Position numbers and translations under genes: made by a program. From assembly GCA_023898585.1 (NCBI GenBank), contig CP060229.1, positions 462,763 to 526,762 on the forward strand: DNA of 64,000 bases, given 5' to 3'. This document shows positions 4,288-63,074 of the stretch, in pieces. Each line of letters opens with the position of its first letter. The first letter of the stretch is position 1. The stretch is from Candidatus Nomurabacteria bacterium (lineage in GTDB: Bacteria; Patescibacteriota; Minisyncoccia; Phycocordibacterales; UBA918). The notes below the pieces were generated by a model. That model was not told the origin of the DNA, did not search any database, and saw only the letters and a program-made list of their open reading frames with translations.

Positions 4288-4688
4288 AAAGCTTCAGACC
4301 GATGAGTTTGACCGTAGTGGGGCAAAACCCCTCCCAAGTGTAATATTGAATCAATGGTGTCAATTAGCTCAAGAAACTTATTTTTGTCTCTGGCTAGAAC
4401 TTTTAACAATCGATCATAAGCACTGCTATCAAGCCGTGATTTGAAACCCTTTGCGGTTGAAGTGCTGATTTTTAGCGTTCCTGATACTTTGTAAATTGAC
4501 TGACCTTGGTTAAGCATGATGATGGCGGCTAAACGTTTAGCTAGAAGGATCTTTTCTTCAGTGCCCAAAAAATCCTCCAAAAACAAAGAAGATTGTTTTG
4601 CGTTCAAACTACCTAGGGTGGAGTTGAGCTGGTTGAATAGTTCATTTAAAGTGGTCTTGCTTAGTTTGTGTCGCGATACATGAACCAT
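4260..4688 (-). CDS. TrpR-like YerC/YecD family helix-turn-helix protein
   Basis: LFLEDFLGTEEKILLAKRLAAIIMLNQGQSIYKVSGTLKISTSTAKGFKSRL matches the YerC pattern FFDDL..E...LAQRL.VA.ML..G.SY..I....G.STATISRV.RSL. Internal start MVHVSRHK chosen because the longer ORF starts inside the upstream palindrome. Confidence 0.65.
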   Translation of the reverse strand: MVHVSRHKLSKTTLNELFNQLNSTLGSLNAKQSSLFLEDFLGTEEKILLAKRLAAIIMLNQGQSIYKVSGTLKISTSTAKGFKSRLDSSAYDRLLKVLARDKNKFLELIDTIDSILHLGGVLPHYGQTHRSEAFKRDQRPFD

Positions 4689-5725: not shown

Positions 5726-7735
5726 ATGTATAGAAAGATTTTAGTGTTGTCGTTTCTAGTGTTTGCGTTGTCCGGGGTTAACTCAGTGTACGCAGTCAGT
5801 AGTCAAGGCAATGATCTCGGAGAGCTCAAGGCCTGTTACTACAAAAGCGCTACTGACTTTTGTGCCAAAGCTGATTTTAATGGTGACGGTACCGTAAATG
5901 CCGGTGATCTCGGTTTGTTAAAATTAGCAACCGGCTATGACACTAACAGTGACGGCATTGTAGACCTGAATCCAAGTGGAGACGAAGTAGTATTCATTAA
6001 AAAAGAATGTGTCTTGGACGGAAAGACTTGTGATCTGAAGTGGGATTTAAATAGCGATGGTTCGGTTACAAACACTGATGCTGTGATGCTGTCTCGTATG
6101 ATACTAGGTCTTAGTCCTTATGAAGGGAAGAGTCTCACCCGGTTCGACCTCAATGGTGATGGCGTTATCGACGTTAATTCACCATATGTCAAAGTTAAAT
6201 CACCAAACGGTGGGGAAGAATTCAAATACGGTGAAGCCACCAAAATCACCTGGGATTCAGTAGGTGTTGACAAGGTGAGTATCGGTTGGTCGGTAGGCCA
6301 AGGATCACTCAATTGGATTGCTACAAATATTCCCAATTCTGGTTCATACGACTGGGAAGTCATTCCGGGCAATATGCTCGATGGACAGAGCAAGGAAGTC
6401 AAGATTCAAATTATTGGTTACATGACTGGTACTGGATCAAAGACCGATGATTCAGATGGTTACTTTACGGTCAAGAAGGCGAATGAATCTGTTGAATCGA
6501 CGACAAATCTTGAGTTACGTGTAGATCCCAATAAGGTTTTAAGTGGAGGGATGTTAAAAATACGTTGGAATAATACTAGCGCAGACTATTATATGCTAGG
6601 AGTAGGCAATTGTGATTCCGGAGAGTATACAGGCGGTAAGGCACGACCGAATTTGTGTACAGAATCAGAGAGAATACCTGGTGATGGTAAAGATGTAATG
6701 ATGATCGAAGACATTATTTTCTACAACACGTCAAATAAAACCGGTACAGTTCAACTCAAATTAGTATCTTACAAAGATGATCAAAAAGTACAAACAGACA
6801 GTGTCGATGTCACCATTGTTCCTGACAACGAGGATTCGACGGAACCAATAAAAGTGATTTTACCAAATGCGGGTGGAGTATATGAAATAGGAGATAAGGT
6901 AAAGATTAGATGGAAGGGAAAAATGCAAGCTATTCGCATTTTTGAAGTGGACTCAAGGGGCGAATTTATAGTTGATGGTTACAGTAAGAATATCGTTGAA
7001 CATTACAACATCGTTGATGATTCCGGTGTGTATTATTGGGTGATTGATGAAGATATTCCAGCCGGTTCGTATAAAATTCAAGTTGAGGGTTGTTGTGGCG
7101 AGATTGGAGGTTTTGATGACAGTGATCGTCCAATCAATATCGTCGAAAATGCTCACGAGGTTAATGACGGCTTACCAGCAGGAATAAAGGCAGATTCTGA
7201 CATTGTGAAATATTGTGATGTCAAAGATAGTATTTCAGACGCCTGTGCTGGTGTCGATTTTGACGGAGATGGTCAATTTTCAAACAAAGATTTACGGATG
7301 TTTAATGATGTTGCGAGATATGACACCAACGGCGACGGTGTGGTAGACCTTAATCCCAAAGGAGACGAAGTAACATTCATTAAAAAAGAATGTGTCTTAG
7401 GAGGAAAGACTTGTGATCTGAAATGGGATTTAAATGGCGACGGCAAAGTGACTAATTCTGACGCTGTCCTACTTTCTCGTATGATGATGGGTCTTAGTCC
7501 TTATGAAGGGAAAGGTCTGAAAAGATTTGACTTGAATGGAGACGGGGTGGTAGACCACTTTGGTAAAACCGAGGTCCAGGAAGAGAGAGGCAATCCCATT
7601 CCATCGAAGTATCAAGATTATGGTAAAACCACTGATCAAGCGGAATTGCAAAGGCAGATTCAAGAACTACTCCAACTGATTATTCAGTTGTTGAGCAAGA
7701 AGATTGTCATGATAACAAGCTCGCCCCAGGTGTAA
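5726..7735 (+). CDS. secreted protein with paired dockerin-like Ca-binding repeats at both N- and C-terminal ends and a beta-rich middle
   Basis: Signal peptide MYRKILVLSFLVFALSGVNSVYA; DxNxDGxVxxxD repeats (DFNGDGTVNAGDLGLL, DLNSDGSVTNTDAVMLSRMILG, DLNGDGVIDVN) duplicated near the C-terminus. Confidence 0.5.
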   Translation: MYRKILVLSFLVFALSGVNSVYAVSSQGNDLGELKACYYKSATDFCAKADFNGDGTVNAGDLGLLKLATGYDTNSDGIVDLNPSGDEVVFIKKECVLDGKTCDLKWDLNSDGSVTNTDAVMLSRMILGLSPYEGKSLTRFDLNGDGVIDVNSPYVKVKSPNGGEEFKYGEATKITWDSVGVDKVSIGWSVGQGSLNWIATNIPNSGSYDWEVIPGNMLDGQSKEVKIQIIGYMTGTGSKTDDSDGYFTVKKANESVESTTNLELRVDPNKVLSGGMLKIRWNNTSADYYMLGVGNCDSGEYTGGKARPNLCTESERIPGDGKDVMMIEDIIFYNTSNKTGTVQLKLVSYKDDQKVQTDSVDVTIVPDNEDSTEPIKVILPNAGGVYEIGDKVKIRWKGKMQAIRIFEVDSRGEFIVDGYSKNIVEHYNIVDDSGVYYWVIDEDIPAGSYKIQVEGCCGEIGGFDDSDRPINIVENAHEVNDGLPAGIKADSDIVKYCDVKDSISDACAGVDFDGDGQFSNKDLRMFNDVARYDTNGDGVVDLNPKGDEVTFIKKECVLGGKTCDLKWDLNGDGKVTNSDAVLLSRMMMGLSPYEGKGLKRFDLNGDGVVDHFGKTEVQEERGNPIPSKYQDYGKTTDQAELQRQIQELLQLIIQLLSKKIVMITSSPQV

Positions 7736-22327: not shown

Positions 22328-22711
22328 GAGATCTGGCTACTTGTGCACACAGTAAGTGTGGTTTTGCCGGGAAATATATTTTGTCGGGATGCAGAGTGAG
22401 AAAATGCGGGGCATTTTCGCAAGACTCATTGAGAATTTTTGCAAAGATATGAGCAAAAATCCAATGAGTGGACAGCCTCTGTAAGAGGGCGAACTCGGGC
22501 CACACCCCTTAGGGTCTCGAATGTCTCCAAGACATCCGGTAAAAAACAGAGTCGGGCTAGGTAGTTGTAACTGTCTGGGAGACAGTTACAAAACTGCCAG
22601 CACATTCTTTCAGGTCGACAGTCTCCCAGACTTCAAGGAAATTCTGGTAGTGGTAACCGGAATTGAAAAATCATTTATAAAAAGTCTCCCAGAAGTTCGA
22701 AAAATCCAAAG

Positions 22712-22782
22712 TCGGGCCGCCGAGAATCGAACTCGGACCACACCCACCCCATGGGCGCACACTACCACTATGCTACGGCCCG
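22712..22782 (-). tRNA. tRNA-Pro (anticodon GGG)
   Basis: Folds as acceptor CGGGCCG/CGGCCCG (C1-G72, as in bacterial tRNA-Pro), D-arm GCAT..GTGT, anticodon stem CGCCC/GGGTG, loop AUGGGGU (U33, anticodon GGG, G37), T-arm CCGAG-TTCGATT-CTCGG, discriminator A. Confidence 0.7.
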
Positions 22783-27723: not shown

Positions 27724-29138
27724 ATTACCATCTTTACCCGAGGTAATAGTGATAATTTAATCTAAATCTGTTAGTCTCCAATGACCAACTTACTTATCCG
27801 GAACTGGTGCTTGACTTTAATTTCTTTTTCTATAGAATAGCCATCACGTATTTATGAGTTTTGAGAAAAGAACACTTTCGTAGCAAGAAATTTCGCAGAT
27901 TGCGATTTAACTTGCCGCGAGATTGCGGTTTTTTCTTTCAAAATTCAAAGGGATGCGGGTTGTTTGACAATTCCCATGACCGAGCGTCACGCGACCAAAT
28001 GTGCGAACACTTTGTGTTCATTATTTGGTTGCATGACCGAGCGAATGGGGATTGTATGGCTTGACCATACAATCGCATATTCATTAAGGACAGGTTGATA
28101 AGACCTGTCCCAAAAAGTCCTACGGCGACATTGTTTTCTTGTGAGCGAATGCGAACTAGAAAACGAGAAGTGCCTTGTGGTAAATCGACGTCGTCGTAGG
28201 CAACCCCCGCATAAAGCTAGAATCGACGCTAGCGCGGGGGAGTAGGTAAAAAAGTGTGTCGGGTTAAGAGTTTGTCCAATCGGACAGGTCTTTTCGTCCT
28301 CGACACGCTAAACACAAAGATCGTAGATTTTCCTAAGGAAAAATCTACGATCAGTCCGGAGTATGTATCTCCGGACAACACTCAAAAAATTGTGCAGCGG
28401 TGCACAGCGTTTTTGTGAGGAGCATGTCATCAGCGAAATCTGGCGACGGACCTTACTTTCGAGCGAGCGAGTGAAATGGAAGTAGCCATCAGGCCATTTA
28501 CATTTCCGAGCGAGCGAAGAAAGCAAGGAACGTTATACAGAAACGCAGTTGATGTATAACGTTCCTTACAGGAACAAAGGGTGTATGGTGGATGCCTTGG
28601 CTTCAAGAAGCGATGAAGGACGTGATATGGCTGCGATAAGTTTCGGGGAGGTGCCAAATAACCTTTGATCCGGAAATGTCCCAATGGGGAAACCCTACTA
28701 CTTTCAGTAGTAACCCTTGTATGAGGGGGCGTACCTAGGGAAGTGAAACATCTCAGTACCTAGAGGAATAGAAAGCAATAGACGGAAATTTCTTTTTGAG
28801 CGGATGCTTTGCATCAGCTCATTGAGCATGGTGCTTTGCGCCATTACGCTCAAGAAGAAGGTTCTTGCGATTCCCGGAGTAGCGGCGAGCGAAAGGGGAA
28901 TAGCCCAAATCCTGCACCTTTTAAGGTGCAGGAGGTTGTAGGGCGGAATCTGCATTTAGTTGCAGAGAGTTACAAAACAGATATATAGGAAAACACGTTG
29001 GGAAGCGTGACCCCAGTAGGTAATAGTCCTGTATTCGAAATGTATCTGACTCTCTTGGTTCCGTTCCTGAGTAGCGCGGGACATGAATAGCCCGTGTGAA
29101 TCCACCAGTACTAACTGGTAAGGCTAAATATTCTTGAA

Positions 29139-29184
<46 letters not shown>

Positions 29185-29949
29185 GGAGAGGGGAGTGAAA
29201 TAGATCTGAAACCATACATCTACAAGGAGTCGGACCCAGCTCCAGATTCGTAATCTGAATCAACGGGCTTTATAAGATCAACCGCAGTTGTTTTATAGAG
29301 CAAAGTTGTGAAAATCGTGAATCTGGAGCTGGGGACGGCGTGCCTATTGAAGAATGAGCCGGCGAGTGTATATCTATGCTTTGTCTAAGTGGCAATCCCA
29401 CGGAGGCACAGTGAAAGCGAGCGTGAATAGCGCGAATATAGCGTAGGTATACGACCCGAAGCGGGAAGAGCTTGCCATGAGCAGGGTGAAGCGACTGTAA
29501 TAGGTCGTGGAGGCCCGAACCGGTTGGCCGTACAAAACCATCGGATGACTTGTGGTAAGGAGTGAAAAGCTAATCGATTTCCGTAATAGCTGGTTCTCTC
29601 CGAAACAGCTTTAGGGTTGGCGTCGTGTGTTTCCTACGGGGGTAGAGCACTGGAAGGTCAAAATAGGGGGAAACTTCGTTTGACCTATCAAACTCCGAAT
29701 ACCGTTAGGCCACAGCACGGCAGTTAGACTACGGGGGAGAAGCTCCGTTGGTCAAAAGGGAAACAGCCCAGATCGCCAGTTAAGGTCCCAAAATATATGC
29801 TCAGTGCAAAATGAGGAGGTGAGGATTCACAAACAGTGAGGAGGTTGGCTTAGAAGCAGCCATCCTTTAAAGATAGCGTAATAGCTCACTCATCGAGAGT
29901 CCTTGCGCCGAAAATGATCGGGGCTCAAGCATATTACCGAAACTGCGGA

Positions 29950-30332
29950 TTCGTAGGCTTCATTTAGGAAAAGTTTATGTCCAAGGGGACAGTTTGATGG
30001 TCGTCAGAGTCCGCTCGCGCAGCGGAACAGCGTACGACCACAGCTGCCCACCAAGCATGCAAAAACAGTAAAGATGTCTCCTGAGGCGAGCGCCACCTGG
30101 CGCGTTAGTGACGGGCACTGCGCAGACTGTTAACATTGCATACTTTTCGTCGGGAGTGTTCGAAAGAACCCCCTTGGACTCCCGTTCTTTTACGTCGAGA
30201 CAATTTTGGTCCCCGGTAGCTTAGTTGGCAGAGTAGCTGAATGCAAATCAGTGAACACTGGTTCGACTACAGTCCGGGGAACCAAAATTGTCTCACGTAC
30301 CATTTCAAACAAGCGTTTGAATCCTAAATGAA
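29950..30332 (+). other. intervening sequence (about 345 nt) inserted in the apical loop of 23S helix 45, closed by a 20-bp stem (UUCGUAGGCUUCAUUUAGGA / UCCUAAAUGAAGCCUACGAG)
   Basis: Flanks align to E. coli H45 (GCGGCAGCGACGC..GCGUUGUUGGGUAGGGGAGCGU); the interior has no 23S homology. Confidence 0.7.
30210..30284 (+). ncRNA. tRNA-like cloverleaf (anticodon-loop GCA, encoded ACCA 3' end) embedded inside the helix-45 insertion, carried on a 21-bp extended stem
   Basis: UCCCCGG acceptor/CCGGGGA, D-arm GCUU..AGUUGGCAGAGU, anticodon stem GCUGA/UCAGU with loop AUGCAAA, T-loop UUCGACU but G53-A61 mismatch; flanked by GAGACAAUUUUGG / CCAAAAUUGUCUC. Confidence 0.45.
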
Positions 30333-30865
30333 GCCTACGAGTGGTAGGAGAGCGTCCATCTCTGCGATGAATCCAAGGCGGGAGCCGCGGTGGAGCGAGG
30401 TGGAGTGAGAATGCCGGCACAAGTAACCGCAAGGCAGGTGAGAACCCTGCCCGCCGAAATACCAAGGTTTCCTTTGCGATGGTGATCATCGAAGGGTTAG
30501 TCGGTCCTAAGGGAATCCCGAATGGGGGACCCGATGGAGAGCAGGTTAATATTCCTGCACACTGTTATGTTCCTATGGAGGGACGGAGCGTTGTACCCAA
30601 AGCTTCTTATTGGATTGGAGCTGGAGCTATGAGCGTGTTACTTAGGTAAATCCGGGTAGCAATAGCGCGAGTAGGGTCTGAATGTGAGCCTTCGGGTGAG
30701 CAAATAAGGGGAGCACGCTTCCGAGAAAAACTTCGTTTGGGTTAAGCATAATGGTTCCGTACCGCAAACCGACACAGGTGGTAGAGTCGAGAAGACTAAG
30801 GCGAACGAGTGAGAGGTCCTCAAGGAACTCGGCAAAATAGCGGCCGTAACTTCGGGATAAGGCCC

Positions 30866-31174
30866 GCCAGCCCTAGATTTGGGGTATGATAGTTGAATGC
30901 ACGCTGTGTACGTGATTCAAAACAATGAGACTAAAGAAGTCTATATTGGTCGTACTGCCAATCTCAAAACAAGACTGGTTGAACACAATTCGCGCGGTAA
31001 GAAAAGCACCACGCGCAATAGTGGCAGCTGGAAGTATATTTATGTTGAACTTTTTCGAAGTACTGATGATGCTATTGAGCGCGAAAAGAAGCTCAAAGCG
31101 CACGGTAGTGGTAAACAAAAGTTGATGTCACGACTTCGAAAAAGCTTGTTTTGAGCCCCAAATCTAGGGCTGGC
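30866..31174 (+). other. 23S helix (E. coli about 1710-1750 region) expanded by a 271-nt loop that consists almost exactly of a GIY-YIG ORF
   Basis: Stem GCCAGCCCUAGAUUUGGGG / CCCCAAAUCUAGGGCUGGC; the ORF starts 12 nt after the stem and stops 1 nt before it. Confidence 0.65.
30897..31154 (+). CDS. small GIY-YIG nuclease-domain protein encoded inside 23S rRNA
   Basis: VYVIQNNETKEVYIGRTANLKTRLVEHN (GIY..YIG, Arg, Glu); 85 aa; paralogue at 54231-54500. Confidence 0.6.
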   Translation: MHAVYVIQNNETKEVYIGRTANLKTRLVEHNSRGKKSTTRNSGSWKYIYVELFRSTDDAIEREKKLKAHGSGKQKLMSRLRKSLF

Positions 31175-31366
31175 CGCAGCGAAAGATTTCCTGCCGACTG
31201 TTTAACAAAAACACAGCTCTCTGCTAACACGAAAGTGGATGTATAGAGGGTGACGCCTGACCTATGCCGGAAGGTTAAGTACGGATGGTGATATGAGATT
31301 CGTCTTGTATTGCTGGGCTGTATAAGCCCCGGTAAATGTCAGCGATAACTATAATCGTTCTAAGGT

Positions 31367-31599
31367 CGAGTGCGTGATTTATTCGTGCATTCGACGGATT
31401 GGGACGATTGTAGAGTTAAATAGCCTAGCCATAGTTACCTTGCGACACAGAAATGTGGCGCATAATCCAAACCAAGCCGTCAAGAGACCAGATGCTTGGC
31501 ACCGCAGCACACGGATCATTGATCTGGGGTGGTGGTGAAGATAGAGTCCAATTGTGAAATGTCCCCGCTACGTTTGTGGTGGAGGAGAAGGAAAAATTG
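31367..31599 (+). other. 233-nt ORF-less intervening sequence at the conserved CUAAGGU|AGCGAAAUUCC site (E. coli about 1917); probable minimal group I intron
   Basis: Exons rejoin to CUAAGGU+AGCGUAUUUCCUUGUCGGGUAAGUUCCGAC; the insert follows a U and ends in G. Confidence 0.55.
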
Positions 31600-32202
31600 A
31601 GCGTATTTCCTTGTCGGGTAAGTTCCGACGTGCACGAATGGCGTAACGAGTGGGAAACTGTCTCGAGGACCTGCTCGGTGAAAATACAATCCCGGTAAAG
31701 ATGCCGGGTACCTGCAGTTAGACGAAAAGACCCCAGGAGCTTTACTGTAATTTCGTATTGGGGCTGTTGAGTTAATGCGTAGCATAGGAAGGAGACTTTG
31801 AAGCGAGCTTTCGGGTATCGTGGAGTCACCAGTGAAATACTTCCCTTTATTTTGGCAGTCTCTAACCGGTGTGGCAAAACCACATCGAGACAGTGCGTGA
31901 TAGGCAGTTTTAGTGGGGCGCTACCCTCCCAAATCGTAACGGAGGGGTCTCAAGGTTGGTTAGGCGCGAATGGAAACCGTGCCGATAGTGTAATGGCATA
32001 AACCAGCTTGACTGTGAGGAGTAGATTCCGAACAGATACGAAAGTAGAGCATAGTGAACCGATGGTTGGCTTTAGACGCCGCCGGAGATTACCCGATAAA
32101 AGTTACCCTGGGGATAACAGGCTAGTTGTGCCCAAGCGTCCATAGCGACGGCACAGTTCGGCACCTCGATGTCGGCTCATCTTATCCTGGGGCTGGAGCA
32201 AA

Positions 32203-33024
32203 CCATATCTGCTCTCCTTGCTGGAAACAGCAAGGTAATCGGTTGGTGGATTTTGTCTTTGGCATAATCCACCAACCGGACTGTAACAATGCGGTACCCT
32301 CCGCGGTACAGGAAACAAGCTCAAAACGGAGAAGGCTGACTCATGCGGTCTAGGGAAGACAAATGACCTGCAGTTTCGCAGGTCCCAGGTGTGCTACACT
32401 TGGAGTATGAGAGCTAATTCCGTAGGAAAGATGTGTTCTGAAGTCGATCTGGCATATGTTGCTGGTTTGGTTGATGGAGATGGCGCTATCATGGCGTGTA
32501 TCGAACCACACCAAGAAAAGAAGTTTCGGTTCAGAGTAAGGGTTGTTTTCAAAGTCACTCAAAAACACAAGGAAGACTTAATATTTCTTGAAAAATTGTT
32601 TGAGTGTGGCTTAATAAGACAAAACGGATCAACATACGATTGGATAGTGCGCGATCAACAATCGCTCGCTACCATACTTGGTATGTTACTCCCTTACTCC
32701 CGCTCGAAACAGCAGCAAATTAAGCTTGCGTTAGATATTCTTCATACTGAAATAGTAACCAAAGAAGACCTACTGCGAGTTGCCACATTGGCGGATGCAT
32801 TGTCACGGTTTAACGTTCGGTCCAACAACCGACGAAAAAACCATGTGACAATGATCCAAGAACACATTTCCTCTAACGACTGATCGCTACTGGTTGGCAG
32901 TAGCGTGAGATATACCCGCTTTGTGGGGTATCACACGGCTTGCACCTACGGTGCGTGTGGTGACACGCGTACTACGGTGATGGAATAGTCTGATCTATGC
33001 GGGAACGCATAGTTAACAGCAAAA
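32203..33024 (+). other. about 820-nt group I-type intron in the peptidyl-transferase region (GGGGCUG.AG | .AGGUCCCAAGGG), carrying a LAGLIDADG ORF
   Basis: Exons align to E. coli GGGGCUGAAGUAGGUCCCAAGGGUAUGGCUGUUCGCC; exact boundaries are ambiguous by ±3 nt (AGCAAA repeated at both junctions). Confidence 0.65.
32389..32883 (+). CDS. LAGLIDADG homing endonuclease (single-motif), intron-encoded
   Basis: DLAYVAGLVDGDGAIMA motif; 164 aa. Confidence 0.75.
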   Translation: MCYTWSMRANSVGKMCSEVDLAYVAGLVDGDGAIMACIEPHQEKKFRFRVRVVFKVTQKHKEDLIFLEKLFECGLIRQNGSTYDWIVRDQQSLATILGMLLPYSRSKQQQIKLALDILHTEIVTKEDLLRVATLADALSRFNVRSNNRRKNHVTMIQEHISSND

Positions 33025-33068
33025 TGAGGTCCCAAGGGTTTGGCTGTTCGCCAATTAAAAAGATACGC

Positions 33069-33102
<34 letters not shown>

Positions 33103-33150
33103 CTCCTATCTACTGCAGGCGTCGATTCTTGAGGAGAGTTGTCCGTAGTA

Positions 33151-33938
33151 AGTAATTGCTACTTCAAGGAGAGATCCTTGATGACAATACGGCTTATAAC
33201 GGTGAAGTCTAAGTCAAATCTGGTTTTAGAGAATGATTGACCAAGGTCCAGTGTCAATCAAACTCGCTTGAGGACCGGAATCTTGATATGATAATACCGT
33301 GGGAAGTCGATCCGACACAGATTTAGCATACATTGCGGGTTTCCTTGATGGAGACGGAAGCATTATGTTGCAGGTAAAGTCGCGTAGCGATACAAATCGC
33401 GGAGTGCGCTTTATGGCAACTATCTGCCTCTATCAAGATACTCGTCACGAGAGTCCACTGTTGTGGATGCGTGAAATCTTTGGTATCGGGTACATATCAC
33501 ACCGTAAGGATAGTATTACCGAACTGAGAGTTAATGGTTTTGCTTCGGTAAGAAGAATACTCATTTTGCTCCAGCCTTACATTAGGTTCAAACAAGTACA
33601 AGTAACAGCATTGTTGAATGCTTGCGAAATACTTGGTGGCCGCAGGGTTGGTGATCTGAATGAAGTCCAGCTGAAAGAGTTGGTTGATCTGGTTTTTTTG
33701 ATCAGGGAAAACAACTATAAAAGCAGGCAGACGCTTACCAAAGAAACATTGCTACTGCGTTTGGGTTTGACCCCGTAACGACTTGCACTGAAATATGTGC
33801 AGACCGCATGTTGATGAATCATTTCTTTGAAAATGACTGACCATGCAGGTAACATGCCGTCGCCCTCGCCCTTTGCCTTTCAAGGTGCAGGGACGGGTGA
33901 AGATATAGTCTGTGCTCCTAGAAATAGGGGAATCCACG
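33151..33938 (+). other. about 788-nt group I-type intron inserted within the sarcin-ricin loop (…UCCGUAGUA | CGAGAGGACC…), carrying a LAGLIDADG ORF
   Basis: Joined exons give UUGAGGAGAGUUGUCCGUAGUACGAGAGGACCCGG, which aligns to E. coli CUGAGGGGGGCUGCUCCUAGUACGAGAGGACCGG; the intron ends in G. Confidence 0.6.
33299..33778 (+). CDS. LAGLIDADG homing endonuclease (single-motif), intron-encoded
   Basis: DLAYIAGFLDGDGSIML motif; 159 aa. Confidence 0.75.
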   Translation: MGSRSDTDLAYIAGFLDGDGSIMLQVKSRSDTNRGVRFMATICLYQDTRHESPLLWMREIFGIGYISHRKDSITELRVNGFASVRRILILLQPYIRFKQVQVTALLNACEILGGRRVGDLNEVQLKELVDLVFLIRENNYKSRQTLTKETLLLRLGLTP

Positions 33939-34017
33939 ACGAGAGGACCCGGATGAACGAACCTCTGGTCTATCGGCTGTCACGCCAGTGGCATTGCCGA
34001 GTAGCTATGTTCGGAAC

Positions 34018-34050
<33 letters not shown>

Positions 34051-34430
34051 GCCTCCAAGATAAGGAATCATTAAGTCCCCAGAGAGATGATCTGGTTGAT
34101 AGGCACTAGGTAGAAGTACAGCAATGTATGGAGCCGAGGTGTACTAATAGGACGTAGTTTCCTGTAAGGAACGTTGTACATCAACTGAAACTTACATAAT
34201 TGTCGTACTGCCGCGTTGTGCATCGGTAAAATAATTCTCTCTGGACGTCTAGTCCCGTTCGAATTATTTTCCTCGCACGCCTTGCATTACAAACAATTTT
34301 GAGAATTTTCAGCCGGTTGTATAACTTTTTACAAACGTTGACACCGTTGCACAATTTTTTGAGAAGAGGTGTTTTACCTACAAAAACAAACCAACTTACC
34401 ACTTTGTCTTCAACATAAGGGAGACAAGTA

Positions 34431-34715
34431 ATGGAAAATAGAAATCCGAACGTATACGAAGGTGTTTTTTCTAAAGTTACATTTCGTAGGGTGTCTGGAA
34501 TGTCAAAAGATGATTCTCGGCGGGTTGAATCATTCATTGTTACTATTTTCGATAGTAACGGTAATGAATTTGATGTTGTAACAATCACACCTGAAGAATT
34601 ACGTCAATGGACGGGTTTTGTTATGACTCCGGGCAGTGACAGTTTAAAAAGTGTCAACAAAAAAGAACCTTTGATCTTGAGAGTTAAAAACTCCAGTGAG
34701 GAGTATTTATATTGA
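34431..34715 (+). CDS. possible 94-aa protein gene inside the 23S-5S spacer
   Basis: AAGGGAGA purine tract 7 nt before the ATG; ORF MENRNPNVYEGVFSKVTFRR...; no recognisable family. Confidence 0.25.
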   Translation: MENRNPNVYEGVFSKVTFRRVSGMSKDDSRRVESFIVTIFDSNGNEFDVVTITPEELRQWTGFVMTPGSDSLKSVNKKEPLILRVKNSSEEYLY

Positions 34716-35005
34716 TTGTTCTTTAGCCCACATGGACGTTGAGGCTAAAGTGGTGTGTTGGTTAAATAAAACATGAATATGCGAATTCAATCGCGTGAAA
34801 TGGTTCACGGATTGTGAAACTGTAGCCATTTGACCACCGATCTCTTGGTGTTTCGTAACTCTGTACCATTACGGGGGTGGTCTAGTCTCAGACTAGACCA
34901 TCCCTACCATTTTACGAGGTGTTCTGGCATTACAAAGCCAATGGGTCCGACTCCCAACACCCCACCATTTCACGCGATTGAAGAAAAGTTAAATTTGAAA
35001 GTTTT

Positions 35006-35230
35006 AAGTTGGTGTTTTGGGATTGAAATTGTCTGGGTGAGAAAGCGTGGGACGCTTTCGCAAGACCTTTTGAGAAAATTTATTTTCCAAAAGGTATACA
35101 GCTTCTGTAAGAAGACAATTTCAAGGGTACACAACTTAAAAAATAAAAAATCAAATCGAGCCTTTCAAGTTGGTGCTTTGGGGGAAGGGGTGAGATAGCG
35201 TGGGGCGCTTTCACCACAAGGGTACTTCTT
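35006..35230 (+). repeat. two tandem degenerate copies of the 5S rRNA 5' end (AAGUUGGUG[U/C]UUUGGG…GUGAGA[A/U]AGCGUGGG[A/G]CGCUUUC), each preceded by an A-rich AAAUUGAAAGUU motif that also precedes the real 5S gene
   Basis: Direct comparison with the 5S 5' end CAAGUUGGUGAUUUGGGGAGAGGGG at 35372. Confidence 0.6.
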
Positions 35231-35371
35231 GTTTGATAAATCAAACAATGTCGCGCAGACCTTGCCAGATATTTCTGGAGTTTACGAACAGAAATATCGA
35301 CAAGGTGTACAGCATCTGTTAAGATGCACCCGTTCTCAAGAAGAAAATTGAAAATGAAATAAATTGAAAGT

Positions 35372-35484
35372 TGCAAGTTGGTGATTTGGGGAGAGGGGTA
35401 CACCCGTTCTCATTCCGAACACGGAAGTAAAGTCTCTTACCACCGATGGTACTGCGCAAGCGGAAGAGTAGGTAGTCGCCAACT
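35372..35484 (+). rRNA. rrf: 5S rRNA
   Basis: Helix I CAAGUUGGUG / CGCCAACUUG; CCGAACACGGAAGUAAAG; GAGUAGGUAGUCGCC. Confidence 0.85.
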
Positions 35485-35573
35485 TGGAGCTTTCAATTTT
35501 CTTTTTAAAAATAAGCCGTCTAGGCTTGTTTTTGTATTCCGAGCCCTAAAGGACTAGGAAAATATGTTCCTTC

Positions 35574-60415: not shown

Positions 60416-62009
<1,594 letters not shown>

Positions 62010-62966: not shown

Positions 62967-63040
62967 TTTGATTTGTCCGTGCTTAGCTCAGTTGGCTAGA
63001 GCATTCGACTGATACTCGAAAGGCCCTAGGTTCGAATCCT
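62967..63040 (+). tRNA. tRNA-Ile (anticodon GAU), flanked by an about 30-bp extended processing stem
   Basis: Acceptor CCGUGCU/AGCACGG, U8, D-arm GCUC-AGUUGGCUA-GAGC, anticodon loop CUGAUAC, T-arm CUAGG-UUCGAAU-CCUAG; flanks GAUAUUUUGUUUGUUUGAUUUGUCCGUGC / GCACGGACAAAUCACGCAAACAGCAAAAUAUC. Confidence 0.85.
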
Positions 63041-63074
63041 AGAGCACGGACAAATCACGCAAACAGCAAAATAT

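Follow-up and report, generated by a model that had tools for sequence, protein, structure and literature searches.

Can a bacterial 23S ribosomal RNA (rRNA) gene carry a transfer RNA (tRNA) inside its coding region, and is such an element a working gene, a decaying remnant or a signal for processing of the transcript in which it lies? This question is raised by a 64,000-nucleotide (nt) stretch of a Candidatus Nomurabacteria genome (assembly GCA_023898585.1, contig CP060229.1, positions 462,763 to 526,762 of the forward strand; hereafter the window). An original prediction, made from the letters of the window, had placed an intervening sequence (IVS) in helix 45 of its 23S rRNA gene and, within the IVS, a tRNA-like cloverleaf ending in an encoded ACCA. 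Our analysis traces the cloverleaf to a former tRNA-Asn, assigns the insert to a family of putative helix-45 IVSs in 23S genes of the Candidate Phyla Radiation (CPR; Patescibacteria) and leads us to prefer a reading in which the tRNA-derived unit would act as a processing signal.

A helix-45 insert with a tRNA-derived unit

The insert (29949-30342; ~370 nt) lies on the forward strand, in the loop of 23S helix 45. This placement, as originally proposed, was borne out by two alignments. The Rfam large-subunit (LSU) rRNA alignment assigns it to the helix-45 loop, after model position 1218 and before 1219, and blastn against Escherichia coli rrlH maps E. coli position 1163 to window position 29948 and position 1247 to 30404, leaving ~372 extra nt. 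The site is thus the terminal loop (E. coli ~1164-1185) in which helix-45 IVSs reside. Helix 45 is lengthened by pairing between the two ends of the insert, as expected of an IVS: residues 29949-29969 (ATTCGTAGGCTTCATTTAGGA) and 30322-30342 engage in 21 of 21 consecutive Watson-Crick pairs, one more than the 20 first counted, and enclose ~352 nt rather than ~345 nt. The 5' strand consists of the basal stem of helix 45 (29949-29958) followed by the IVS terminal repeat CTTCATTTAGGA; the 3' strand is made up of TCCTAAATGAAG and GCCTACGAGT, and the assignment of both strands is supported by pairing and by the family alignment described below. By site and architecture, as read from the DNA, the insert is a member of the helix-45 IVS class.

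From 5' to 3', the closing helix encloses a structured, variable 5' module of ~208 nt (29976-30183), which had no Rfam match at E ≤ 1 and showed no similarity to other IVSs of the family or to phage records; a GTTCTTT motif (30184-30190); the leader strand of a leader/trailer helix (30197-30209); the tRNA-derived cloverleaf (30210-30281); an encoded CCA (30282-30284), which doubles as the start of the trailer strand (30282-30294); and a 3' hairpin, TTCAAAC-AAGC-GTTTGAA (30304-30321), which is seen in the minimum free energy (MFE) structure and abuts the closing helix. The 5' module looks like an insertion into the GTTCTTT motif, with AAAAGTT on its 5' side and GTTCTTTT on its 3' side.

Several other interpretations of the insert were tried and rejected. 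A second, decayed tRNA in the 5' module was discarded, as ARAGORN finds none there even at a relaxed threshold. The sole open reading frame (ORF) of the insert encompasses six codons (ATGTCCAAGGGGACAGTTTGA), which speaks against an ORF-bearing IVS. Apart from the tRNA unit, Rfam recognises no known RNA or intron in 29949-30342 at E ≤ 1, and a group I or group II intron was dismissed for want of any ribozyme-core match at this threshold, the only, weak group I matches being located at 31374-31561 and 33785-33931. Finally, an IVS identical to that of the window is present in an independent metagenome assembly (ERZ27309291; locus L002) whose 23S gene differs elsewhere, and we therefore rejected an assembly artefact. 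The 43 differences between L002 and the window cluster in two short variable helices (28901-28960 and 29621-29760) and include compensating changes, pointing to a mosaic of strains, to recombination or to chimeric assembly of the metagenome.

ARAGORN calls the unit a tRNA-Cys(GCA) (30210-30284) and reports no transfer-messenger RNA (tmRNA). A covariance-model test of the cloverleaf, as advised in the original prediction, yielded 50.5 bits for Rfam RF00005, above the gathering score of 29 (E = 7e-8 for the 64-kb window), so that structurally the unit qualifies as a tRNA; the ordinary tRNA-Pro and tRNA-Ile of the same window score 54.9 and 72.1 bits, respectively. The cloverleaf comprises 72 nt plus the encoded CCA, and the landmarks initially noticed in it are all present, namely the D-loop AGUUGGCA, the anticodon GCA (30243-30245) in the loop AUGCAAA, the T-loop UUCGACU and the encoded ACCA (30281-30284). 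The anticodon loop has 7 nt, with U33 and A37, and tops a 5-bp stem. The 7-bp acceptor stem is prolonged by a 13-bp helix between the leader GAGACAATTTTGG and the trailer CCAAAATTGTCTC (duplex energy -23.8 kcal/mol; z = -7.6 relative to shuffles). An extended acceptor stem, previously put at 21 bp, is thus present with a length of 20 bp and the discriminator A30281 as its sole bulge. Because the acceptor stem continues into the leader/trailer helix, the encoded CCA is base-paired to a UGG of the leader.

The ancestry of the unit was searched for among public phage records, a rich source of annotated tRNA genes. Within the IVS, the tRNA unit alone gave matches there; the best were to annotated tRNA-Asn genes and none was to a tRNA-Cys gene, with identities of 79% over 76 nt (Pseudomonas phage phiPMW) and 78.6% (a group of Microbacterium phages). 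Common to the unit and the tRNA-Asn genes are the acceptor stem TCCCCGG/CCGGGGA, including U1-A72, the anticodon stem and the T arm. The unit departs from these genes in the anticodon loop (ATGCAAA versus CTGTTAA, GCA being two substitutions away from GUU), in the discriminator (A73, at 30281, versus G), in position 61 (A versus C, with loss of the G53-C61 pair; 30261/30269), in positions 13 and 25 (both C to T, giving two G:U pairs in the D stem) and in a variable loop that is one nt shorter. The 53:61 non-pair is unique to the window among 15 aligned class-I IVS units and deprives the unit of the G53-C61 pair expected of an elongator tRNA. A phage origin was rejected, as the matches reflect generic similarity to tRNA-Asn only.

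The major cysteine determinants are U73 and GCA, the asparagine determinants are the anticodon and G73, and U1-A72 marks tRNA-Asn for the amidotransferase (PMC9976931). The unit has GCA but A73 instead of U73, on a body that is not of the Cys type; it retains U1-A72 but has neither GUU nor G73. Judged by its discriminator, anticodon and body, it therefore satisfies neither the Cys nor the Asn set, and it bears the label "Cys" because of two point changes in a former tRNA-Asn. The comparison with the genomic tRNA-Cys that had been recommended is consequently the wrong one, the body being of the Asn type and A73 fitting neither identity. Taken together, these comparisons show the unit to be a former tRNA-Asn, which by its identity elements is predicted to be no longer able to decode.

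A family of related inserts in CPR 23S genes

Related inserts were gathered with two pattern scans. The first (GGTTCRA N{60,90} GGTAGGNGAGCGT), run on one genome per species, returned at least 120 matches, of which ~110 were chance occurrences outside 23S genes; among the matches listed, the true 23S matches came mainly from CPR. Rfam detected a tRNA inside helix 45 in four loci, L068 (Parcubacteria; 74 and 46.9 bits), L029 (Nomurabacteria; 65.6 bits), L074 (Paceibacterota; 53.8 bits) and L060 (UBA2103, complete genome; 42 bits). These four, the window and two Saccharibacteria loci share a closing helix whose distal part, TTCATTGAGGA/TCCTCAATGAA, is maintained in sequence as well as in pairing. 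The second scan, a more specific pattern applied to metagenome contigs, added 23 further loci. Over 25 non-identical closing helices, 99.8% of the cells are paired and both partners have changed at 13 of 20 pairs, a level attained in 0 of 500 shuffles, with the qualification that the 5' arm was located by a complementarity search and that the 3' motif AYGAAR is part of the second pattern.

The frame of the family comprises, from 5' to 3', the closing helix, a variable 5' module in long versions, GTTCTTT, the leader, one or two tRNA units, the trailer, the 3' hairpin and again the closing helix; in short members closure-AAAAGTTCTTTG leads directly into the tRNA unit. The motif GTTCT[TG]T is found just 5' of the leader in 16 of the 25 distinct IVSs (for example in L029, L060, L074 and L154), with 0.9 expected from shuffles (maximum of 4 in 500), and is absent from the subfamily with the closure TTCATAGAGGG. 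A hairpin occupies the 3' hairpin position in every member inspected, including the tRNA-less L155 and L157, and the leader/trailer helix varies in length from 0 to 19 bp across the family. The common frame and closing helix show that the insert belongs to a family of putative IVSs that is widespread in the 23S genes of CPR/Patescibacteria.

Syntenic loci were fetched via homologues of an upstream membrane protein, giving an unbiased sample of seven, including the window. The six relatives that reach helix 45 have flanks 89-99% identical to those of the window; L156, L158, L160-L162 and L166-L169 end before helix 45 and were not counted. In four relatives (L159, L163, L164 and L165), an IVS is missing and a plain UUCG-capped hairpin of 12 bp is seen instead. 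The frame of the IVS is present in L155, where it surrounds an unrelated interior devoid of a tRNA unit, and in L157 (Ca. Nomurabacteria GCA_020632035.1), where a Shine-Dalgarno-like AAAGAGG and a 45-codon ORF take the place of a tRNA unit. The product of this ORF (~13470-13620 of L157; MSKLRSKFNKWVSTHPWLGAFIFVPGIPMLFFLILFSLPKV) looks like a small hydrophobic peptide. In this sample, an IVS is thus found in three loci and a tRNA unit in one, and the interiors of L155, L157 and the window are wholly non-homologous; the sporadic presence matches that described for classical IVSs (PMC11270868), and unrelated interiors are likewise expected of IVSs.

Among the loci fetched by pattern, L029 is nearest to the window in its 23S flanks (~92% identity), and its leader, trailer, 3' hairpin and GTTCTTT motif are homologous to those of the window. 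Orthology of the two tRNA units found no support: they are only 57% identical, versus 64% between the window unit and the tRNA-Ile of the window, and thus no closer than unrelated tRNAs. The L029 unit bears GTA on a class-I body with T73, a combination that we take to fit no bacterial Tyr identity.

At default settings, ARAGORN recognised tRNA units in 15 of 28 IVSs; the number rose to 23 when insertions were allowed, and all units lie on the rRNA sense strand. Counted over distinct IVSs, units are present in 21 of 25 (the window and twenty others), most metagenome units being defined by ARAGORN calls. Six IVSs hold two units in tandem. The anticodons seen are GCA, GTA, TGC, CCA, TAA, AAC, GAA, AAG, GGC, CGG, GCG, ACG and TTT. 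Some units look intact: the second unit of L068 (L068b; 6060-6136, minus strand) is an Ala-UGC with G3:U70, A73 and CCA that scores 74 bits, the first unit of L152 (L152a; 4380-4456, minus strand) a Pro-CGG with C1-G72 and A73 that scores 61 bits, and the unit of L153 (4961-5037, plus strand) an Arg-ACG with A20. Their identity elements were matched partly to the tRNA identity review cited above and partly to rules that we assume to hold. On this basis, the L068, L152 and L153 units are candidates for real tRNA genes nested in a 23S rRNA gene.

Most units, however, have lost features needed for decoding. Of 30 units, no more than 9 have kept a canonical anticodon arm. Insertions of 15-90 nt, or a loop of 6 or 8 nt, disrupt this arm in at least 11 distinct units, and in some units position 33 is C, G or A instead of U. 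In several units, anticodon and body do not match. The "Leu-TAA" units of L133, L134 (L134a) and L139 reside on a tRNA-Phe body (81% identity over the full length), and the sister unit in L140 still reads GAA. Class-II-like units, or insertions of 20-90 nt at the anticodon-loop position, occur in L060 (5806-5909, plus strand), L063, L135/L142 and unit a of L068; the anticodon arm of L060 is a 7-bp stem with a 4-nt loop and no anticodon, and its acceptor, D and T arms and CCA are intact. The window copy itself is a degenerate example of this recurrent class.

Processing signal, relic or gene

Based on these results, we suggest that the insert may be an RNase III-type IVS with a non-decoding, tRNA-derived module that would serve as a handle for tRNA end-processing enzymes, a reading to which we assign a probability of roughly 45%. 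A processing-signal mimic or a releasable tRNA-like RNA had been among the possibilities raised at the outset; both would be compatible with the data, and it is along these lines that we prefer to read them. The third possibility, a tRNA-derived mobile insertion, held up as regards the derivation from a tRNA, while "mobile" fits the whole IVS better than the tRNA unit.

In the 23S precursor, the ends of the insert would form the perfect 21-bp helix, which RNase III would cleave by analogy with classical helix-45 IVSs; the insert would be removed and the 23S rRNA left in two pieces, without religation. The gene for RNase III, rnc, is retained by CPR genomes in general (PMC12641178). Once the double-stranded parts had been opened by RNase III or by breathing, RNase P would cut at 30209/30210 and 3' trimming would stop at ACCA; the extended acceptor helix (~20 bp) would constitute a second helix at which RNase III may have to act first. 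As an outcome, the excised IVS RNA would be punctuated and cleared, and a non-decoding tRNA-like RNA of ~75 nt would be released.

RNase P, 3' trimming enzymes and the CCA-adding enzyme recognise the acceptor stem, the T arm, the D arm/elbow and the CCA. None of the 30 units lacks more than one of the 7 acceptor pairs or more than one of the 5 T-stem pairs, although the search pattern had demanded the T-loop hexamer alone. In the aligned units, 93% of acceptor cells, 97% of T-stem cells and 100% of D-stem cells are paired. Acceptor stem, T arm, D arm/elbow and CCA are thus kept and the anticodon arm drifts, and we therefore favour a signal for punctuation and clearance. A similar picture emerges from L134a and L139, two clearly orthologous units derived from tRNA-Phe, which share the 5' strand of the acceptor stem and the D arm and differ by three compensated pairs in the T stem, and whose anticodon arms accumulate mismatches and have lost U33. 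In this subgroup, the units appear to have been under selection in place.

The CCA points in the same direction. It is encoded after 14 of 21 IVS units and after one of five ordinary tRNA genes in the same loci; in the window, the Pro-GGG gene (22711-22782, minus strand) and the Ile-GAU gene (62977-63051, plus strand) encode no CCA, whereas the IVS unit does. The excess could reflect selection for recognition by RNase P, or else an origin from a processed tRNA.

Several observations weigh against the processing-signal reading. The five ordinary genes provide only a tiny baseline for the CCA comparison. The comparative set was gathered with a pattern that contains the T-loop and hence gives no frequency of tRNA units in the family, and units with decayed acceptor stems escape the unit finder used. 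L155 and L157 exhibit the same frame without the unit, which is therefore dispensable, any benefit being modest. In the window copy, decay has reached the top half of the molecule (G53:A61 and two D-stem G:U pairs), and for the isolated 75-mer the predicted optimum is a rod of -29.5 kcal/mol, with the cloverleaf at -20.7 kcal/mol, so that the cloverleaf originally proposed has to be qualified by the mismatch, the two G:U pairs and a rod 8.8 kcal/mol below it. Full pairing of leader and trailer, with the CCA tied up in it, makes for an unfavourable RNase P substrate; the enzyme acts poorly on such a helix without prior cleavage or melting. Moreover, excision of the insert and its cleavage by RNase III and RNase P are steps that we infer.

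Some of these points would equally be expected if the unit were a neutral relic, that is, a tRNA-Asn gene that landed, or was carried, in a mobile or often-lost IVS, now decays as a pseudogene, perhaps folds as a rod and is removed by RNase III regardless. We regard this explanation, the main rival, as possible, though less probable than the processing signal. It would account for the close relatives that have an IVS but no unit, or no IVS at all, for damage to the window unit at positions that are otherwise invariant or that confer identity (A61 in place of C, A73 in place of G, the changed anticodon and G:U pairs in the D stem), for the preference for the rod, given that the tRNA-Ile and tRNA-Pro of the window fold near the cloverleaf in the same prediction, and for the wrecked anticodon arms of many family members. 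It would not account for acceptor, T and D arms that stay paired family-wide, nor for the compensated changes between L134a and L139 in units whose anticodon arms decay. Likewise, the 13-bp leader/trailer helix is perfect in the window, and L029, with 92% identity in its 23S flanks, has conserved leader, trailer and GTTCTTT sequences; for a drifted sequence, a CCA would be expected in 1/64 of units, far below the frequency seen.

Much less probable, in our view, is a working nested gene, i.e. a functional tRNA-Cys(GCA) that would be transcribed from the rRNA promoter and released upon IVS processing in the manner of spacer tRNAs from rRNA operons. Such a gene would be in keeping with an anticodon loop of canonical form (7 nt, U33, A37 and a 5-bp stem), the sense orientation, the encoded CCA and an Rfam score in the range of the window tRNA-Pro, and also with the intact-looking Ala-UGC, Pro-CGG and Arg-ACG units of L068, L152 and L153. 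However, A73 contradicts the major Cys determinant U73 (PMC9976931), the body is of the Asn type and has G53:A61, and syntenic relatives lack the unit. At the same place, in addition, L029 carries its GTA unit with T73 on a class-I body, without, by the rule that we assume, a fit to bacterial Tyr.

It is very unlikely that the insert is not excised and persists as an expansion segment, with a tRNA-shaped tip on the solvent side of the 50S subunit that might, for example, bind a tRNA-binding factor. Helix 45 is presumably surface-exposed, and the sequence conservation of TTCATTGAGGA/TCCTCAATGAA could mark a protein site, but presence and absence of the insert vary among organisms with 93-99% identical flanks, the non-homologous interiors of L155, L157 and the window are typical of IVSs and not of functional expansion segments, and RNase P would have access to a tRNA-like fold that bears a 5' leader.

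Bacterial YrlA RNAs have tRNA-like T and D arms and an acceptor-like stem that is continuous with a long flanking helix, and they need no anticodon. The acceptor stem of the window unit likewise runs into the helix formed by its two flanks. Unlike YrlA, which is an independent gene next to rsr, the window unit lies inside the 23S gene, has an encoded CCA and gives no YrlA covariance-model match. That the excised unit is a Y-RNA-like or other protein-binding small RNA, serving rRNA quality control by tethering an Rsr/Ro-type protein or an exonuclease, seems the least credible of all, since the YrlA-like architecture and the dispensable or replaced anticodon arms of many family members are offset by the absence of any Rfam Y-RNA/YrlA match at E ≤ 1 in 28500-35500 and by a leader/trailer helix that varies from 0 to 19 bp. 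No Rfam tmRNA match at E ≤ 1 was obtained in this interval either.

The host gene, related systems and implications

The 23S rRNA gene that hosts the insert spans 28565-34190 on the forward strand, with its end extrapolated. The Rfam LSU alignment covers 28565-32289, stopping early because of two ~0.8-kb inserts, 32198-33027 (at E. coli ~2533) and 33111-33939 (within E. coli 2617-2657); the real end is at ~34190, as blastn against rrlH aligns E. coli 2534-2617 with 33027-33111 and E. coli 2657-2760 with 33939-34042. Each of the two inserts contains a LAGLIDADG ORF (32389-32883, Pfam E = 4.6e-8; 33299-33778, E = 6.4e-10), and the weak group I intron match at 33785-33931 has E = 0.057. Further extra segments comprise ~88 nt at E. 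coli ~230 (28779-28866), ~83 nt in the region of helix 25, where the second of the classical IVS sites lies (29240-29322), ~265 nt between E. coli 1708 and 1773 (30868-31196) and 233 nt at E. coli 1931/1932 (31367-31599; very weak group I match, E = 0.98); none of these four contains a tRNA-like element. Such heavily interrupted 23S genes are typical of the CPR group (PMC11270868). A protein encoded 1.8 kb upstream has an identical counterpart in the NCBI records, listed for 'Candidatus Kaiserbacteria bacterium'. In the window as a whole, Rfam further locates the 5S (35377-35484) and 16S (60416-62009) genes and three tRNA matches, one of them inside the 23S gene. The rRNA genes are unlinked, on one strand and in unusual order: the 23S gene, the 5S gene ~1.2 kb after its end, ~25 kb of protein genes and then the 16S gene. 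The tRNA-Ile(GAU) gene is situated ~970 nt downstream of the latter.

Classical helix-45 IVSs, as in Salmonella, Campylobacter, Leptospira and Coxiella, are excised by RNase III without religation (PMC11270868, PMC4990558, PMC2801512). They resemble the window insert in occupying the same loop, in their long end helix, in their sporadic distribution and in a variable interior that sometimes includes an ORF, as it does in L157. The window family, known here from its sequences, is set apart by its own terminal repeat TTCATTGAGGA/TCCTCAATGAA, GTTCTTT and the 3' hairpin, and our literature search found no tRNA-like cloverleaf in described rRNA IVSs. In CPR, Tsurumaki et al. (2024; PMC11270868) reported many short, non-intron, ORF-less inserts at classical 23S IVS sites (23IS2 and 23IS4) and suggested that they are RNase III IVSs. 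The window insert corresponds to this kind. These inserts come from the same organism group as the window, whose 23S gene also bears the CPR-typical LAGLIDADG inserts; they differ in that the term "tRNA" has 0 occurrences in the main text of that paper (PMC11270868). The tRNA-derived content of CPR IVS inserts thus appears to have gone unnoticed before.

As regards function, the nearest analogues are the spacer tRNAs of rRNA operons and the tRNA-like processing signals of eukaryotes and organelles. Spacer and distal tRNAs (16S-tRNA-Ile/Ala-23S, or after 5S) share a transcript with rRNA and are processed by RNase P and 3' nucleases, the flanking rRNA being freed by RNase III at long leader/trailer helices. 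Functional-looking tRNAs are also present in a few members of the IVS family (L068, L152 and L153); unlike spacer tRNAs, however, the IVS units lie inside the 23S coding region, and the window copy and most others cannot decode, as judged from their sequences.

Plant mitochondrial t-elements and mitochondrial tRNA punctuation provide precedents for non-decoding tRNA shapes that are cut out of longer transcripts by RNase P and RNase Z. We know of no example of a tRNA-like processing signal in a bacterial rRNA IVS. A tRNA-like processing signal is also found in mascRNA of MALAT1/MEN-beta (PMC11693755). With mascRNA and t-elements, the window unit has in common a non-decoding tRNA shape in a longer transcript, with acceptor stem, T arm and elbow kept and the anticodon arm free to change. 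In contrast to these eukaryotic or organellar systems, its leader and trailer are paired, an unusual geometry for RNase P.

With due reserve, we extend our proposal to the family: CPR helix-45 IVSs might be an unrecognised home both for tRNA genes (Ala-UGC, Pro-CGG and Arg-ACG) and for top-half processing modules, in which 23S fragmentation and IVS clearance would be coupled to tRNA processing as a bacterial counterpart of mitochondrial "tRNA punctuation". We consider this broader picture possible, though tentative.

For annotation, the present case holds two warnings. Programs that find tRNAs report units of this kind as ordinary genes (here a spurious "tRNA-Cys"), which affects estimates of the completeness of CPR tRNA sets, and covariance-model annotation of rRNA misplaces the end of heavily interrupted 23S genes. 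IVSs have long been known as RNase III-excised, apparently selfish elements that sometimes contain an ORF; tRNA genes and tRNA relics as recurrent sense-strand content of one IVS family would add a form of gene nesting not seen before, in which an rRNA gene houses a tRNA. If our reading is true, it would connect the fragmentation of rRNA with RNase P and CCA-type processing in bacteria whose ribosome-biogenesis toolkits are minimal.

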